Shown here: positions 3 to 36,211 of the stretch, in pieces
Numbering within the stretch: the first letter of the stretch is position 1
Layout of the letters: every line of letters starts with the position of its first letter
Source of the DNA: a virus
Lineage: Duplodnaviria > Caudoviricetes
Direction: 5' to 3' (one strand)
DNA: 38,024 nt
IMG/VR virus record: IMGVR_UViG_3300049924_000050
Location: 1 to 38,024 of that record
The notes under the pieces: generated by a model
Seen by the model: only the letters and a program-made list of their open reading frames with translations
The model's database searches: none
Told to the model about the DNA's origin: nothing
Translations under genes and position numbers: made by a program

Positions 3-33
3 TATAATAGTAATAGAGGAGATAACCACCCTC
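3..33 (+). promoter_or_regulatory. -10 box followed by a 5' leader hairpin with AGATAACCAC loop
   Basis: TATAAT at 3-8; GAGG(16-19)-AGATAACCAC-CCTC(30-33); ATG at 42. Confidence 0.5.
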
Positions 34-41
34 GAAACATT

Positions 42-131
42 ATGGACAAAAAATACTACGTTTCTAATGGTTACAAATTAATGACTAAAGAAGAATTAAT
101 TAATAAAGTAACAAGTTCTTTTAAGAAATAA
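42..131 (+). CDS. Small hypothetical protein (29 aa, MDKKYYVSNGYKLMTKEELINKVTSSFKK)
   Basis: Read manually; follows promoter and leader; TAA-T-ATG junction with the next gene. Confidence 0.55.
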   Translation: MDKKYYVSNGYKLMTKEELINKVTSSFKK

Positions 132-3199: not shown

Positions 3200-3248
3200 T
3201 TATGCACAGTATAAACATAGTTTTGTAAAGATGATACACTGTGGACAA
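3200..3248. promoter_or_regulatory. Divergent promoter pair with two DnaA-box-like sites
   Basis: Minus TATACT 3208-3213; plus TG-A-TACACT 3232-3240; TTATGCACA 3200-3208; TGTGGACAA 3240-3248. Confidence 0.55.
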
Positions 3249-3760
3249 TGGCACACGAAGCACAGAGAATGTTTTTTGAAAATGTTAAGAGTGATTTACC
3301 AGAGTATTTTAAAAGTGTTAAAGTGGTAGATTTTGGTTCTAAAGATTATAACGGATCATTTAGAGATATGTTTACTAACTCTGATTATATTGGAGTAGAT
3401 ATATCAGATGGTAAAAATGTTGATTACGTATCACTATGCCATAAGTTTATTACAAATGAACGGTTCGATACAGTGATTTCAGGGGAAATGTTAGAACATG
3501 ACGAGTTCTGGAAAGAATCTCTAAAGAACATGTACACATTGCTAAGACCTGGTGGGTTACTTGTTATAAGTTGTGCAGGTAAAGACAGACCAGAACATGG
3601 TACAAGAAGAACAGATGGTCATCTATATGGAACCACACAAGATTACTACATGAACTTAGAACCAGAACACTTTAGGGAAGTACTCAAAGAATCTATGTTC
3701 GAAGACTCAGAATGTTTCGATTATAACCAAGACACATACTTTTATGGCATCAAAAACTAA
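3248..3760 (+). CDS. Class I SAM-dependent methyltransferase (Methyltransf_11-like; not a DNA MTase)
   Basis: VVDFGSKDYNG motif I, GVDI..GKNVD, FDTVISGEMLEHD, LLRPGG; no DPPY/NPPY/PC motif. Confidence 0.85.
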   Translation: MAHEAQRMFFENVKSDLPEYFKSVKVVDFGSKDYNGSFRDMFTNSDYIGVDISDGKNVDYVSLCHKFITNERFDTVISGEMLEHDEFWKESLKNMYTLLRPGGLLVISCAGKDRPEHGTRRTDGHLYGTTQDYYMNLEPEHFREVLKESMFEDSECFDYNQDTYFYGIKN

Positions 3761-5675: not shown

Positions 5676-5689
5676 TGTGCTTGATACTT
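5676..5689 (+). promoter_or_regulatory. Putative late promoter TGTGCTT-GATACT (identical copy at 11059-11072)
   Basis: 14-nt exact repeat TGTGCTTGATACTT just upstream of the portal and adaptor ATGs. Confidence 0.6.
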
Positions 5690-5694
5690 GACGT

Positions 5695-7548
5695 ATGGAA
5701 CTAACAAACATCTTTGATACCATCCGAAAGGAGCGTTATGACTTTTTGAATAACGAAATTACTATTGTAGGATGGCCTACACACTCACAGTACGCAACAA
5801 TTAAGAAAAATCACCTCTACTATACTTCTCATTTTGAGAATGGAGACTACGAAGTAATCAACGGTGTCACGCGAAAGAAGCACTTTCATAACATTAACTC
5901 TTGGAGATGTGATGTTGCTACAAAGATGCTCGACATAGACTTTAAAGACTTTCTTCTTGTTGGCAATGACCCAGCGCAGGATGTAAACGTAATGCTCCTC
6001 GAGAAAGAGCTAAAGCATTGGATGAAGCGTGAGAAATGGGGGAAAATCCTTAACCAGGTATCTGAGAAACTACCAGTACAAGGATCAGTTGTGCTTCGTA
6101 AGTATGGTAATGATGAGGCTAAGGTAGTTGACCTACGTTACCTTTACAATGACCAGAGTGCTGAGTCTCTCAAGTGTGCTCGTTATATCATCATCCGTAA
6201 CCTAATGGATGCTAACGAGCTTCGTAAGATGAAAGGAAAGTGGAACAATGTTCAGGATGTGCTCGACAACTTCGATGATTATTCTGCTGTGGTTGGATAT
6301 GACAATGCTAATGAGTTTGGTGGTAATGCTAACGTTGCAATTACAAAGAACAATACACAGAACCTCGTAGAAGTATGGGAAAGGTGGGGTGAATTTCCTA
6401 AGAGTTGGATCACTGGGAAGTCTCCAGATGAGGATGAATATGTGTGGGGTAAGTTTATTGTCTGTGGAGCTGATGCTGTAACTCGAAATGAGAACGGTAA
6501 TATCACTGCTGAGAATGGAGTTGTTCTATGGTCAGAGGAACTAAACAAAGAAAAGGATTTCCCATTCAAGGAAGTACATTACCGAAAGGTTGATGGTCGT
6601 TGGCTTGGAGTTGGTATTGTCGAGATGACATGGGAGCCACAGCGAAGAACTAATGAGATCAAGAACCAAGAAGCTAAAGCTCTTGAACTTGCTTCTCTTC
6701 AGCTATTCCAGACACGATCAACCAATGTAATGTCTAACATTCTTACTGATGCTGATACTGGAGACATTATCCAGTCTAACAGTGAGATTACACCAATTGC
6801 TACAGAGTCACGTAACCTACAAGGTTTCCAGGTGGCATTTGATGGAGAAGATAAACACGCTGATCGTCTTACTTTCTCATATGATGGGGTTAGCGGTGAA
6901 ACTGCTCCTGCTTCCGCAACACTTGGAGCGCAACAGATCGCAACACAGCAAGCTACTTCTGCTTTCGACTACAAGAAAGAAAACGTCGCACTCTTCTACC
7001 AAGAATATATCGAAGACATTGTACTTCCAGCGCTTGAAAAGGTATTAACACGAGATCATGTGTTCCGTCTTACCGGCTCAATGGAAGAACTAGCAAAGCT
7101 ACGCCAGAATATTGCAGAAAACTATATCTTTAACATCCAAAAGGAGGCTATTCTTAATGGTCAGGAAGTCCCAGACAAGGAAACTCTCATGCAATTGCAT
7201 ATGAAGGAACTACAGAAGCAAGGTGATAAGATTTGGGTATCTGTCCAAAAGGACTTCTTTAAGAATCTTGATTACTATGTTGACCTTGTTATTTCAGGTG
7301 AAAACAAGAATATCTTTGCTACTATTGGTAATGCACAAGCAGTCCTTGGACTTCTACAAGACCCTACAATCCTTCAGGATGCTGGCAAGAAAGCTATTCT
7401 ATTCAAAGTATTATCAAATCTAGGTATGCATACTTCAGAACTACAGGATATTGAAGCTAAAGTGTCTGAACAAGCTCAGCAACAACCACAGCAGATGCCA
7501 CAGCAACCATCACCAATGCAGCCTATAACCGCTCCACAAAATGCTTAA
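5695..7548 (+). CDS. Portal protein
   Basis: 617 aa after terL; WLGVGIVE, SATLGA and Q/P-rich tail resemble P22/T7-like portals. Confidence 0.85.
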   Translation: MELTNIFDTIRKERYDFLNNEITIVGWPTHSQYATIKKNHLYYTSHFENGDYEVINGVTRKKHFHNINSWRCDVATKMLDIDFKDFLLVGNDPAQDVNVMLLEKELKHWMKREKWGKILNQVSEKLPVQGSVVLRKYGNDEAKVVDLRYLYNDQSAESLKCARYIIIRNLMDANELRKMKGKWNNVQDVLDNFDDYSAVVGYDNANEFGGNANVAITKNNTQNLVEVWERWGEFPKSWITGKSPDEDEYVWGKFIVCGADAVTRNENGNITAENGVVLWSEELNKEKDFPFKEVHYRKVDGRWLGVGIVEMTWEPQRRTNEIKNQEAKALELASLQLFQTRSTNVMSNILTDADTGDIIQSNSEITPIATESRNLQGFQVAFDGEDKHADRLTFSYDGVSGETAPASATLGAQQIATQQATSAFDYKKENVALFYQEYIEDIVLPALEKVLTRDHVFRLTGSMEELAKLRQNIAENYIFNIQKEAILNGQEVPDKETLMQLHMKELQKQGDKIWVSVQKDFFKNLDYYVDLVISGENKNIFATIGNAQAVLGLLQDPTILQDAGKKAILFKVLSNLGMHTSELQDIEAKVSEQAQQQPQQMPQQPSPMQPITAPQNA

Positions 7549-11056: not shown

Positions 11057-11079
11057 AATGTGCTTGATACTTATGGTAT

Positions 11080-25194: not shown

Positions 25195-25296
25195 TTACCT
25201 AAGCCAGATATCCCAGATAAGCCATCCTATCGCAAAAGGGATACCAACCCATGGGAAAAAACAAGTAATTAATAACCAGATTAAAAAGTTTGTCAT
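25195..25296 (-). CDS. 33-aa Trp-rich hydrophobic microprotein (absent from ORF track)
   Basis: MTNFLIWLLITCFFPWVGIPFAIGWLIWDIWLR; stop abuts the upstream gene's stop; minus-strand -10 TACTAT at 25335-25340. Confidence 0.65.
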   Translation of the reverse strand: MTNFLIWLLITCFFPWVGIPFAIGWLIWDIWLR

Positions 25297-25317
25297 ATCG
25301 TTATAGAGCTTATTGCT

Positions 25318-25382
25318 CTTTCCACAACTCTACCATAGTATTGTCCACATGTCTTGTGGATAAATTATCCGTACCCTACACT
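25318..25382. promoter_or_regulatory. Divergent promoters with DnaA-box cluster
   Basis: TGTGGATAA 25355-25363 (perfect, reverse), TTGTCCACA 25341-25349, CTTTCCACA 25318-25326; plus-strand TACACT 25377-25382. Confidence 0.6.
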
Positions 25383-28675: not shown

Positions 28676-28834
28676 ATGGAACTAACAGGAGGAAACTACG
28701 GAGGTTACGAAGTTGGTGAGACATCTGTAAGCCTTGGTGATGAAGTTATTGTTTTTACAGTGGTTGAAGATGGCGTTATTAATGTTGGCGGTTTTCTCTA
28801 CAATGAAGACGGAATCTTTGTTGGCCAAGAATAA
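28676..28834 (+). CDS. Small acidic hypothetical protein
   Basis: TAA-T-ATG start (MELTGGNYGG). Confidence 0.6.
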   Translation: MELTGGNYGGYEVGETSVSLGDEVIVFTVVEDGVINVGGFLYNEDGIFVGQE

Positions 28835-32155: not shown

Positions 32156-33328
32156 CTACTCAACAAGAATAGGACAAACTACAGTTTTGCCACGCTTCTG
32201 ATCAATCAGGAAAAATGCTTGCTCAGGTCGTCCAGTGAAACCAAGACGCTTCCCGTATGGGCTGTCCCCGATGAGAGAACCGTTGACAATGAACTGCCCA
32301 CCATCAATGCGATTATGGAAATGCCCGAAGACATCCAGATACGCTTTTCGGTCATTGTTGTAACGGTTGATGGCCTTGATGACTGGCACGGTAATGCCAC
32401 CCAATCCACCACCGTATTGAATTGCATGACCATGGTGAAAACGAATCGTGTGTCCAAGCACATCGACGTAGTTGTGGTAAGACCTGGACAGAACAAACGT
32501 CACACGCTTTTCTTTTGCAAAGTACTTCGCCAAGAAGTTGTACATCGCCCACTCAAGCGAGTTCCCTTGTTCATTCGACACGTGAATCTTGTGAGTCATG
32601 CGCGAATGATTACCAACGGCACACGGCACAACCAGCTTCAGTTTTGAGTTCTTCAGGAGGAACTCAATTCCAGATGCGATAAGGTTCTGTGCGAACAGCA
32701 TTGCATCTTGTGGACCGACTTCACATGCGGCAAGCAGCTCTTCATGGATGTTCCCTGAGAAGAAATCTCCCAAGAGAGCAACCACAAGTGTGTCGATCTT
32801 CACCGCTTGTTGTTCTTTTTCCACGAGTTGCAGTGTGTGCTGGAAGAACTTCTCTGCACGTTTCTTTGCGATAGCCATCGTGTACTCGTTTGAACCGTTC
32901 ACGCTTTCTGGCTTCACATTTTCTTCGACGTGCCAATCTGAGGCGACAGCGACTGCCACAGCATTGCCACCAGTTCCTTTCGACTTTTCAATCGTGTAAG
33001 TGCTCACAGCATCCTTACATGCAGAAATGGTTTCAATGTCATCACGCAAACGCATGATTTCAGCCATAGCGATCTGGTACTTTTTGTCAGTACCTTTTTC
33101 TTGGTGCTTCAGACGAAGTTTCTCCATGTCCAGCGCAAACTGTTGCTCATCAGTAAGTGCTGCTTTCTTGACCCCTTGGCCTTGTGCTTCACCAATCAGA
33201 CCTTCATCACGAAGTCGTGCTTGGTGCTCGTTGATCGTTCTTGTAGTCCTGCCAGTTTTCTTTGCCAACCATGCCCTTGTTTCTCCTTGATTATCAATCA
33301 AGAACTTACGCAGTTGCTCGGTGTTCAT
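32156..33328 (-). CDS. Calcineurin-like metallophosphoesterase with N-terminal HTH and coiled coil
   Basis: SDWH, LGD, GNH, HHGH and GHFH motifs; N-terminal TRAWLAKKTGRTTRTI; SD AAGGAG. Confidence 0.85.
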   Translation of the reverse strand: MNTEQLRKFLIDNQGETRAWLAKKTGRTTRTINEHQARLRDEGLIGEAQGQGVKKAALTDEQQFALDMEKLRLKHQEKGTDKKYQIAMAEIMRLRDDIETISACKDAVSTYTIEKSKGTGGNAVAVAVASDWHVEENVKPESVNGSNEYTMAIAKKRAEKFFQHTLQLVEKEQQAVKIDTLVVALLGDFFSGNIHEELLAACEVGPQDAMLFAQNLIASGIEFLLKNSKLKLVVPCAVGNHSRMTHKIHVSNEQGNSLEWAMYNFLAKYFAKEKRVTFVLSRSYHNYVDVLGHTIRFHHGHAIQYGGGLGGITVPVIKAINRYNNDRKAYLDVFGHFHNRIDGGQFIVNGSLIGDSPYGKRLGFTGRPEQAFFLIDQKRGKTVVCPILVE

Positions 33329-33486
33329 AGTTTACTCCTTTTGAAAGAACGTTGTTGAACTTAGTTTATGTGACATATCTCTTCATCACACGACTACCTT
33401 AATATTAAAATGTGTTGTCCAATAACGTCTTTAAAATAAGTAGAACATGATACTTGACAAAAACCTATACTGTGGACAGTAAATAC

Positions 33487-33591
33487 CAGAAAAGCACTCT
33501 CTGGTAAAAGTGCTTCTCTGTGAGATAACGATATGAAAGTGTAAACCCGTTCAGAGATTACATGTGACGAGAAATACTAAAAACTCATCAC
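33487..33591 (-). ncRNA. Putative ~105-nt three-hairpin small RNA
   Basis: TG-C-TATACT promoter (33598-33606); stems close with G-U pairs on minus but A-C mismatches on plus; ends in hairpin plus short U run. Confidence 0.5.
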
Positions 33592-33620
33592 TTGCAGAGT
33601 ATAGCATACCGTATTATAAT
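33592..33620 (+). promoter_or_regulatory. Sigma70-type promoter overlapping a divergent promoter
   Basis: TTGCAG(33592-33597)-17 bp-TATAAT(33615-33620). Confidence 0.7.
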
Positions 33621-33626
33621 TAAGAA

Positions 33627-34035
33627 GACCTCTCGCTAAAGAGTTTACTAGCCAGTGGCGGAACTATATTCTGTTGCACAAGGCTCTGATGAGTAGGCTA
33701 TTATGATACTTAACGTAGCCGAAAGTGACATTTGGTGTGATCCCATTTAGGCTCGGTGTATCAATCGAATATATGACATATAGAAGATTATATTTGTAGA
33801 GTGATAAATGTTTTTTTAGTTTCGTAAAAACTATTACCTACCTACTTAATGTAGATAAGGCTCGGAGCATTGTTGAAAGACTTGCTCTGCATCTAGCGGG
33901 CGCAAGCTCCTAACGGTTCGAACTGTTGGCTAGACAAAAAGTAATTCCACTTAATGGGGCTTCCGTATGGTTGCTCAGTAGCTAAACGATGGGTTCTCCC
34001 ATTTAATGCTTCTTACAAGACTAAGTGGTTTTTTT
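33627..34035 (+). ncRNA. Putative ~400-nt structured non-coding RNA
   Basis: Promoter upstream; several stems with GNRA and TTCGAA loops; CCACTTA/TAAGTGG plus T7 at the end; no long ORF. Confidence 0.55.
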
Positions 34036-34050
34036 GTTGTATAATTAAAT

Positions 34051-34170
34051 AGCACAATAAAAGTGTAGAGCCAGCTCCGTCCAACTCTTTTACATAAAAT
34101 ACAAAGTGGCGGTAAATAAATAAGACTAGATTAATAGTACAACTAACCCCACAGCAATGTGTGGTTTTTT
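34051..34170 (+). ncRNA. Putative ~120-nt small RNA
   Basis: TATAAT 34040-34045; AGTGGCGG shared with the upstream RNA; terminator CCACA-GCAATG-TGTGG-T6. Confidence 0.4.
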
Positions 34171-34171
34171 G

Positions 34172-34180
34172 TTATCCACA
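34172..34180 (+). promoter_or_regulatory. Perfect DnaA box
   Basis: TTATCCACA. Confidence 0.6.
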
Positions 34181-34248
34181 CCCTATACACTTTTAAATAC
34201 GTTGTTTATACTCTAAGAGTAATAGAAATATTACCAGTGATATGACTC

Positions 34249-34308
34249 GACTCTTCACAGAGTCCCATGAGCGTAAGTTCGTGGCTCACTGTGAGGAGTT
34301 TTGTTTTT
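34249..34308 (+). ncRNA. Long GNRA-capped hairpin with T tail (sRNA or attenuator)
   Basis: GACTCTTCACAG/CTGTGAGGAGTT enclosing CCATGAGC-GTAA-GTTCGTGG; TATACT at 34207-34212. Confidence 0.55.
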
Positions 34309-34733
34309 AAATTCTTGTACGAACCATCTAATAAGGCTTACAGATGTAAAACTATGTCTTTTGAAATAGAGGTACATTTATGAAGGGGGACAATATAACA
34401 CGTTCTATGAGTTCCTAACAATCTGGTTAGATAAGAACATAGTAAACTAGGACTTCCTCTCGACGTATGAAGCTGAGTATTGCCCTCTTTCATAGATGTA
34501 TCTTAAATGAACATTCAGGTATTAATGCGAAAACATGGAAAAACAGTTGTCACCCTCTGTCCATGTCGTCTGATTAGTATCGGAGTGTTTAAGTTAGTAA
34601 CGTATACCTTCTGGGGAGGTAACAACATCTACTAACACCGTACAGATAACATAAGAACCCAAGCTTCTGGGATTAATCGAAAGGAAAAGGGTGGAAGATA
34701 AATTTGAACTATTAGATAAAATTGAAAGTTCAC

Positions 34734-34797
34734 TTATCCACACAAGAAACCTAGGAACTATGTATATAATATATCTAGCGATAACAACGCTAACGAT
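34734..34797 (+). promoter_or_regulatory. DnaA box, -10 box and leader hairpin
   Basis: TTATCCACA 34734-34742; TATAAT 34765-34770; TAGCG-ATAACAA-CGCTA 34776-34792. Confidence 0.6.
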
Positions 34798-35103
34798 ATG
34801 GAAATACCACAAACAACTTTAGATAGATTCAAATTAGGTGCTGAACTAAATACTAAGATAGTTAAGCGTCAGACAGAAAGAGGTGAATTACTTAAACAAT
34901 TCCTAGAGCAAATAAACATGTCTAGGATAGGAAGCAAATACAAGCCTGTTACCATAGCAAAAATAGGAATGGACGTAGCACACGTAGAAACTAAAGATCT
35001 ATACTACCTACTCAGTGTATGCAAAGATGCTGGCAACAGAGCAAAGAGATATGATTCAGGTTTCTCTAAGATGTTTTATTGGTCAATAAGAGTACAAAAA
35101 TGA
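34798..35103 (+). CDS. Hypothetical basic protein
   Basis: First gene after promoter and leader. Confidence 0.75.
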   Translation: MEIPQTTLDRFKLGAELNTKIVKRQTERGELLKQFLEQINMSRIGSKYKPVTIAKIGMDVAHVETKDLYYLLSVCKDAGNRAKRYDSGFSKMFYWSIRVQK

Positions 35104-35879: not shown

Positions 35880-35951
35880 TTTTCCACAGTTACCCACTTG
35901 CAAAACTTATCACATGGTATATACTGTGTACATGGAGAGATAACCAACTCC
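35880..35951 (+). promoter_or_regulatory. DnaA-like box, promoter and leader hairpin
   Basis: TTTTCCACA 35880-35888; TTGCAA 35898-35903; TATACT 35920-35925; GGAG-AGATAACCAA-CTCC 35934-35951. Confidence 0.6.
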
Positions 35952-35959
35952 TTAATACT

Positions 35960-36211
35960 ATGAAAATAATTTCAATATCAGAATTTAACAACTACGCAGT
36001 TAAAGAACTATCAAGAGGTAAAGTTGAATCACACTGTGTGTCAATCTTAAGGGCATTAATGGAAAATCTTGTAGTTGGAGAATCTGTAGAGGTTTTAAAA
36101 GAAGAATGGACAAATAAATCAGAGCCAAGAATCCCATTAAAAAATGGTAAAAAATTTACTACACACACATTAGCTAATAATTCAGGTTGGCTCGTTAAAA
36201 GAATTGTTTAA
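35960..36211 (+). CDS. Hypothetical protein
   Basis: ATG at 35960 lies downstream of the promoter and leader. Confidence 0.7.
   Translation: MKIISISEFNNYAVKELSRGKVESHCVSILRALMENLVVGESVEVLKEEWTNKSEPRIPLKNGKKFTTHTLANNSGWLVKRIV

Follow-up and report, generated by a model that had tools for sequence, protein, structure and literature searches.

Does a 1.47-kb gap in the genome of this phage, between a minus-strand nuclease gene (33328) and ORF 34798, encode a small RNA that acts on distant genes? The gap lies in a virus record that is complete in the window, i.e., in the whole stretch of 38,024 bases analyzed here. The phage genes include those for terminase, a portal-like protein, the major head protein, endolysin, Erf, NinG, and nuclease; among the best five PHROG families for each of 53 proteins, none was an integrase or repressor family. 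The PHROG scan also returned no polymerase, primase, or helicase family, which, together with five perfect DnaA-box-like 9-mers (25355, 30453, 34172, 34734, and 35880), suggests that the phage may lean on host DnaA. A tRNA/tmRNA search found none. The host is likely an ultra-small CPR bacterium, since the look-alike clusters of the protein encoded by ORF 34798 are, in the Atlas, mostly viral or Minisyncoccota (CPR). A Shine-Dalgarno word is found in only 3 of the 50 plus-strand starts. A TACACT box at 3235-3250 (+) stands only 7 nt 5' of the methyltransferase ATG at 3248, and this message is probably leaderless. Close relatives of the phage are present as Logan contigs of about 32 kb. As read from this one genome, the feature in the gap is real and non-random, and it makes a good sRNA candidate with an unusually tidy set of predicted targets.

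The predicted RNA is encoded by the minus strand (Table 1). The extended -10 promoter, hairpin 1, and terminator-like hairpin described in an earlier note on this DNA are all present in the sequence. A gap of 6 nt separates the -10 box from hairpin 1, placing the expected +1 at the first base of that hairpin, and we infer transcription from a host-polymerase promoter of the same kind as those of the targets. The terminator-like hairpin is one of 16 terminator-like sites returned by a genome-wide script. The minus strand folds with a z-score of -5.31 (0/200 shuffles as good) versus -1.54 for the plus strand, and, when the terminator is left out, with -2.87 versus -0.39. The fold contains five G-U pairs on the minus strand, which favour that strand as the working one. 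A second stem drawn previously, UCUCUG/CAGAGA closing a 31-nt loop, depends on the 3' end of the RNA. If the RNA ends inside the U4 tract (33490-33492), this stem is the minimum-energy fold (pair probability 0.72-0.92); with an end at or past 33487, CAGAGA pairs within the terminator instead, the stem probability is at most 0.0001, and the seed forms an open linker of 19 nt. Under both alternative folds, most of the seed is unpaired (mean 0.70-0.96). Rfam gave no match at gathering score across the window and, at E of at most 10 over 33300-34850, three unrelated weak matches only, none on the candidate RNA. Three segments of the RNA were tried as a second seed. The hairpin 1 loop has matches of 8, 7, and 7 nt in three leaders, a result equalled by 38/2,616 composition-matched windows, and may be a second pairing site, as a weak lead; the hairpin 2 loop and the 3' tail were not above background. 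The seed was rejected as a DnaA box, from which it differs by two mismatches.

Table 1. Positions of the candidate RNA, its putative targets, and related elements.
Feature	Positions	Strand	Basis or remark
Predicted sRNA, about 105-112 nt	33480..33591	minus	MFE -36.7 kcal/mol
Predicted extended -10 promoter TGcTATACT (TG-n-TATACT)	33598..33606	minus	consensus match only
Hairpin 1, GUGAUGAG/CUCGUCAC, 8 bp, 12-nt loop	33564..33591	minus	sequence and fold
Hairpin 2 (fold with long 3' end)	33540..33562	minus	computed fold
Single-stranded 19-nt seed CUUUCAUAUCGUUAUCUCA, anti-AUG half and anti-loop half	33521..33539	minus	unpaired probability about 0.9
Terminator-like hairpin, 15 bp (33520-33487), short U tract	33480..33520	minus	sequence scan
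Possible convergent promoter TATACT and three-codon ORF MKV	33466..33544	plus	sequence; TAnACTGTGGAC context as at 3235
T1: TAGAGT box, hairpin AGAGC-AATAA-GCTCT, then ATAACGATATGA	25293..25332	minus	12-nt match over AUG
33-aa hydrophobic peptide ORF, first gene behind T1, opposite to virion genes	25195..25296	minus	translation
T2: TATAAT, hairpin TAGCG-ATAACAA-CGCTA, then ACGATATG	34765..34803	plus	10-nt match; 13 bp with one G-U
101-aa helical-bundle protein, first gene behind T2	34798..35103	plus	25 homologues; model pLDDT 84
T3: TATAAT, hairpin GAGG-AGATAACCAC-CCTC, AUG 42, 29-aa ORF	3..46	plus	predicted 8 bp + 6 bp split duplex
T4: TATACT, hairpin GGAG-AGATAACCAA-CTCC, AUG 35960, 83-aa ORF	35920..35965	plus	predicted 8 bp + 7 bp split duplex
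Promoter-proximal hairpin, invariant loop AGAUAACCAC	L132:8294-8342, L137:1509-1558, L148:1575-1624	all minus	other phage contigs

We scanned the window for -10-like hexamers followed by a 5' hairpin of any loop sequence and, 3-12 nt beyond it, an AUG. The scan, whose rules were chosen after four sites had already been seen, found four promoter-hairpin-AUG units, with AUGs at 42, 34798, and 35960 (plus) and 25296 (minus), identical to the four targets named in the earlier note. With looser rules, the four targets are still the top 4/6 and the top 4/24 by seed match, and when the hairpin rule is dropped, three of them are the top 3/16. The same scan gave 18 matches in 7 of 9 other sequences, one of which is a leader family member in G010, while the rest look scattered. 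The targets form a coherent class, the genome's only four promoter-hairpin-AUG units. All four hairpin loops contain AUAA. Perfect DnaA-box-like 9-mers stand just upstream of T1, T2, and T4 (3 of the genome's 5, with the DNA upstream of T3 lying off the contig), which suggests that the targets share a promoter class. None of the four target ORFs, the 33-aa peptide included, has a Pfam or NCBIfam family. The 83-aa ORF of T4 stands ahead of the Erf recombinase gene. For the 101-aa protein of T2, fold searches gave no clear match (best Z 8.1, to a designed helical protein); look-alikes of the RepB C-terminus, with scores below 0.9, are a lead only; and 300 genomes of G011's phylum yielded no member of the family (one further genome was not scored).

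The seed matches the leaders T1, T2, T3, and T4 over 12, 10, 8, and 8 nt, respectively (sum 38); in order of distance from the RNA, the four sites lie 1.2, 2.4, 8.2, and 33.5 kb away. The complementarity to four starts claimed before holds, with the T1 match (25304-25293, minus strand) longer than the 11 nt first given, the T2 match at 34791-34803, and the 8-nt GAGATAAC of T3 and T4 at 19 and 35937. Among 75,270 other genomic 19-mers, the best sum against the four leaders was 31, and none matched all four over at least 7 nt. No shuffled seed among 100,000 reached 38, and 3/100,000 did so with TATGAA fixed (i.e., with the start codon retained). The phage's 47 other starts score at most 25 against the seed, and the summed duplex energy of the seed with the four leaders beats all 3,000 sampled windows. 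The complementarity to the four leaders is non-random. Elsewhere, in-gene matches to the seed reach 11 nt (26559) and 9 nt (22234). Judged against background, the earlier claim stands for the four structure-defined leaders, but not to the same degree against all 54 start regions: there, the seed comes first among 5,224 non-coding 19-mers with a small lead (39 vs 38) over a runner-up that is a sense-strand gene start at 28676, an unlisted gene.

These counts bear on a reading in which the site is an ordinary promoter-terminator stretch, or an attenuated leader upstream of the minus-strand nuclease operon (33328), and AT-rich, start-like words make it resemble the leaders by chance. The small lead against all starts would suit this, as would the picking of the site by whole-genome scanning, the lack of a homologue, and a terminator with a short U tract that points at a downstream operon. 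However, the genomic 19-mers and constrained shuffles argue against chance, and in G002 the 160 nt that precede 33328 are conserved independently, the candidate element being absent there. We consider this reading very improbable.

In the predicted duplexes, a single run of 12-13 bp spans the AUG of T1 and of T2. The duplexes with T3 and with T4 are each split in two by a looped-out stretch of 14 nt: GUUAUCUC pairs with the hairpin loop GAGAUAAC, and the AUG is paired by UUUCAUA or UUCAUA. The matched bases form a mosaic in which T3 and T4 use the GAGATAAC end of the seed and T1 and T2 the TAACGATATG end, the two motifs overlapping in AUAAC; only with T3 and T4 does the match include the seed's GAG end. 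Together, the matched bases occupy 17 of the 19 unpaired seed positions, and for this reason a short protein motif explains the likeness less well than pairing does. The best reading is the one proposed in the earlier note, an antisense RNA acting in trans on several targets, and its targets are coherent. It is fairly probable, judging from these predicted features, that a trans-acting sRNA blocks translation of the first gene of each predicted promoter-first message, and one RNA would likely silence the whole early gene class. In this scheme, the RNA would be made alongside the early messages and then accumulate. The 3' half of the seed (GUUAUCUC) would first make contact with the GAUAAC or AGAUAAC that is accessible within or next to each 5' hairpin, the 5' half (UUUCAUAUC) would then cover the AUG, and initiation would be blocked at the first AUGs of the early messages. 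Since so few starts carry a Shine-Dalgarno word (3/50), covering the AUG region itself is a likely way to stop initiation. The RNA would act as a delayed brake on early genes and might also hinder related incoming phage. The framing as immunity or a master repressor fared less well than the antisense reading itself, because no integrase or repressor family and no Rfam match were found and the targets, instead of making up a co-transcribed antirepressor operon, are first genes at a distance; as no integrase turned up, a role in timing or in a carrier state is as plausible as prophage immunity.

Binding energies are less even than the seed matches. Whole-RNA values are -14.3, -12.5, -7.8, and -7.7 kcal/mol for T1, T2, T3, and T4, respectively; 3/47 other starts bind at -12.5 or better and 9/47 at -7.7 or better. 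When ranked with an opening penalty, T2 is 4th and T1 10th of 54, and neither T3 nor T4 is among the first 10. By whole-RNA binding energy, two of the four targets do not stand out from other starts. Such values would suit a real RNA with a narrower task, in which it controls the 33-aa membrane peptide, and perhaps 34798, for exclusion or as an unlinked type I-like antitoxin, and its 8-nt matches at T3 and T4 are idle. Among the four, T1 is matched over the longest stretch and bound with the most favourable energy, the T1 peptide is short and hydrophobic, the energies of T3 and T4 are unremarkable, and a leader of the same type in L113 also precedes a 32-aa hydrophobic peptide. A type I antitoxin is usually encoded next to its toxin gene or overlapping it, and the two are complementary over a longer stretch. 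The likeness here is a short hydrophobic peptide (25296-25195) whose start is covered by a 12-nt match, but the RNA and the peptide gene are 8.2 kb apart and share 12 nt only. The peptide has no family match, the GAG end of the seed fits only T3 and T4, and both of these share the 14-nt spacing between pairing runs. Such an antitoxin seems quite improbable to us, and the sole basis of the antitoxin variant raised previously is that one target is a 33-aa hydrophobic peptide.

The preferred reading, a minus-strand RNA with four targets, was also weighed against one in which the plus strand works. There, GAUAAC/AUAAC would be an early-leader motif recognised by a protein of the host or of the phage, and 33522-33536 would be a fifth copy, present as a decoy RNA made from TATACT at 33466 or as a decayed gene start (MKV). 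This TATACT and the ATG AAA GTG TAA (MKV) at 33533-33544, both pointed out before, are there, although, beyond a plausible -10 box, the counter-transcript proposed with them gained no support. The -10 box has the same context as those at 3235 and 35920, GAGATAACGATATGAA is an ordinary gene start in many of 32 unrelated viral loci, and the runner-up 19-mer is itself a sense-strand gene start (28676). Along the same lines, the leader hairpin of G010 has no antisense partner, and a further sense copy, GATAACAT, stands at 34645 in a conserved plus-strand element, with which a protein-bound motif would also fit. Yet the plus strand folds no better than shuffles, and the leader geometry is absent, with the AUG 61 nt behind the -10 box versus 27-34 in the four units. 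Moreover, the match extends both ways past the AUAAC core and coincides with the unpaired minus-strand stretch, and the phage's other 47 starts score at most 25 versus 38. On balance, we find the plus-strand reading rather improbable.

Relatives were searched for the RNA and for its targets. No RNA homologue was found in five related records (two chance matches of 14-16 nt lie outside the RNA), in 32 viral loci with an exact 16-mer, in 24 metagenome and two viral loci of the 34798 family, or in INPHARED (seven chance matches, E of at least 3); a full-length homologue was absent from the collections searched, and no RNA-target covariation or compensatory change was shown. Contigs from runs X1-X5 have, among the differences listed, none over the candidate where they cover it, and the sequencing runs listed for the phage include no RNA run. 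An X7 contig aligns over only 23 nt at 33521-33543, i.e., the seed (mismatches not displayed), and then from 34173; this match is shorter than the 30 nt below which, according to the tool's warning, one side of a joint often comes from another organism. A second X7 contig covers the T4 promoter and hairpin (35897-35955) and then diverges, and a third X7 alignment stops at the start of the T2 hairpin.

The target side recurs more widely. A leader hairpin with the loop AGAUAACCA stands behind TATACT in L113/L132, L133, and L148, with changed stems; in L113/L132, it precedes a 32-aa hydrophobic peptide and, in L148, an operon with Erf, as for T4. The recurrence of the loop hairpin with changed stems suggests that the target loop is a real conserved RNA feature. 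In the leader stems, 28/30 cells are paired and 3 pairs are changed on both sides, a covariation count inflated by search patterns that demanded purines and pyrimidines and drawn from a set in which L132 and L148 are close relatives. Between 9 and 10 of 500 shuffles were as high on three of five covariation measures, and the other two were not distinguishing. The T3/T4-type leader family has no Rfam match in this window. A leader search returned 43 matches, two with a perfect stem and one of those with a -10 box; in further searches, stems were found in 2/2 and 1/7 matches, and a last set of seven held no new member. L143 was rejected as a member, its hairpin being in another register with no AUG close by. 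A covariance model of the leader run on 44 sources found only its five training sites and one match at E 1.9. In G010, which has terminal repeats and is rated 100% complete, the leader is present with no non-coding GTTATCT and no convincing antisense partner; a 14-bp match to its own leader at 39079 was set aside as lying inside a short gene. G003 keeps a T2-like start, and no antisense partner was found there, while G006 and L148 are fragments and uninformative on partner absence. The G010 leader, occurring without a partner, counts against extending the scheme to every phage with the leader; the leader may therefore have its own job, and this RNA may be a later addition.

The c4 RNA is processed out of the operon that also carries its target, and the complementarity of sar to ant is long. 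In extracts of PMC12197685, c4 of phages P1/P7 is described as pairing through short exposed sequences near the ribosome-binding region of the ant antirepressor mRNA, blocking translation and forming the basis of heteroimmunity. The candidate resembles c4 as a phage RNA with a short exposed seed, here with predicted duplexes over AUG regions; unlike c4, it would act on four distant unrelated first genes, and there is no antirepressor among the PHROG families listed for 53 proteins. The C4 antisense RNA covariance model of Rfam had no match on the candidate. The CI RNA of satellite P4 is, according to PMC4825925, processed from a primary transcript and pairs with flanking seqA and seqC, leading to premature termination. 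Both CI and the candidate concern RNA control of phage early or replication genes with short pairing at more than one site, but a promoter and a terminator of its own are predicted for the candidate, whose sites lie over AUGs about 1.2-33.5 kb away rather than flanking it. Similarly, sar of P22 appears in the extracts of PMC12197685 as a small, independently made RNA that blocks translation initiation of ant. It shares with the candidate the character of a small independent phage RNA (predicted here) directed against translation initiation, whereas sar has one target (ant) and the candidate short, partly split pairing with four leaders. The same extracts (PMC12197685) attribute to trans-encoded bacterial sRNAs hairpins, an unpaired seed by the terminator, and short imperfect pairing with several mRNAs. 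The candidate is like these multi-target sRNAs in its predicted promoter and terminator, its unpaired seed, and its short matches to distant mRNAs; it differs in that its predicted regulon consists of the phage's own promoter-first genes. In summary, the candidate would work like c4 and sar and recalls CI, but it belongs to none of these families, given the lack of an Rfam match, of an ant target, and of flanking sites.

Within the literature covered (listings and abstract openings), no description was found of this RNA, of the leader, or of any CPR-phage sRNA. As described in PMC12197685 and PMC4825925, c4, sar, and CI act on one operon tied to lysogeny. If the preferred reading is true, such an RNA would switch a whole gene class without any protein by covering the start of each promoter-first message. 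Little work has addressed how CPR bacteria and their phages control their genes, and a hairpin-plus-AUG leader with an antisense partner would offer a handle on how messages mostly without Shine-Dalgarno words are started and stopped. The short pairs lead to direct predictions for reporter tests. A bolder version, which is unlikely, is that the whole early regulon of a CPR phage lacking a recognisable repressor or integrase is run by one RNA with a two-part seed, one half reading the conserved loop AGAUAACCA and the other covering the AUG. As this loop is shared across phage lineages, the RNA could also silence the early operons of other carriers, i.e., RNA-based exclusion through a Shine-Dalgarno-independent leader. 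The family of promoter-proximal leader hairpins with the AGAUAACCAC loop is of interest in its own right, beyond this phage.

The same gap and its surroundings contain other conserved elements. The non-coding element 34497-34695 (+), which holds the GATAACAT copy mentioned above, matches G003 with 84% identity over 206 nt; L074 shares its first 75 nt, L086 shares 31 nt, and parts of it occur in runs X6 and X8. It folds into a long hairpin and two smaller ones with plus-strand G-U pairs, has no Rfam match, and is a second ncRNA candidate. Shorter conserved non-coding stretches lie at 34304-34378 and 34386-34457 (84% in G003, 83% in G001). The stretch 33615-33807 (+), behind TATAAT at 33615, is about 83-88% conserved in several X7 contigs; its single-sequence fold is not above shuffles, and it has no Rfam match. 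It contains CUGAUGAG...GAAA words that resemble a hammerhead core, without a clear third stem.

Elsewhere in the genome, TGTGCTTGATACTT occurs at 5676-5689 and 11059-11072 (+), just 5' of the portal-like gene (5695) and ORF 11080, and is a possible late promoter; its core, TGATACTT, is also present at 33448 and 33704. The small ORF 28676-28834 (+), which has no Pfam family, shares its first 12 coding bases and the preceding T with the portal-like gene at 5695. Finally, a tRNA-like gene cluster was seen by eye at L007:4890-5315, upstream of a nuclease homologue.
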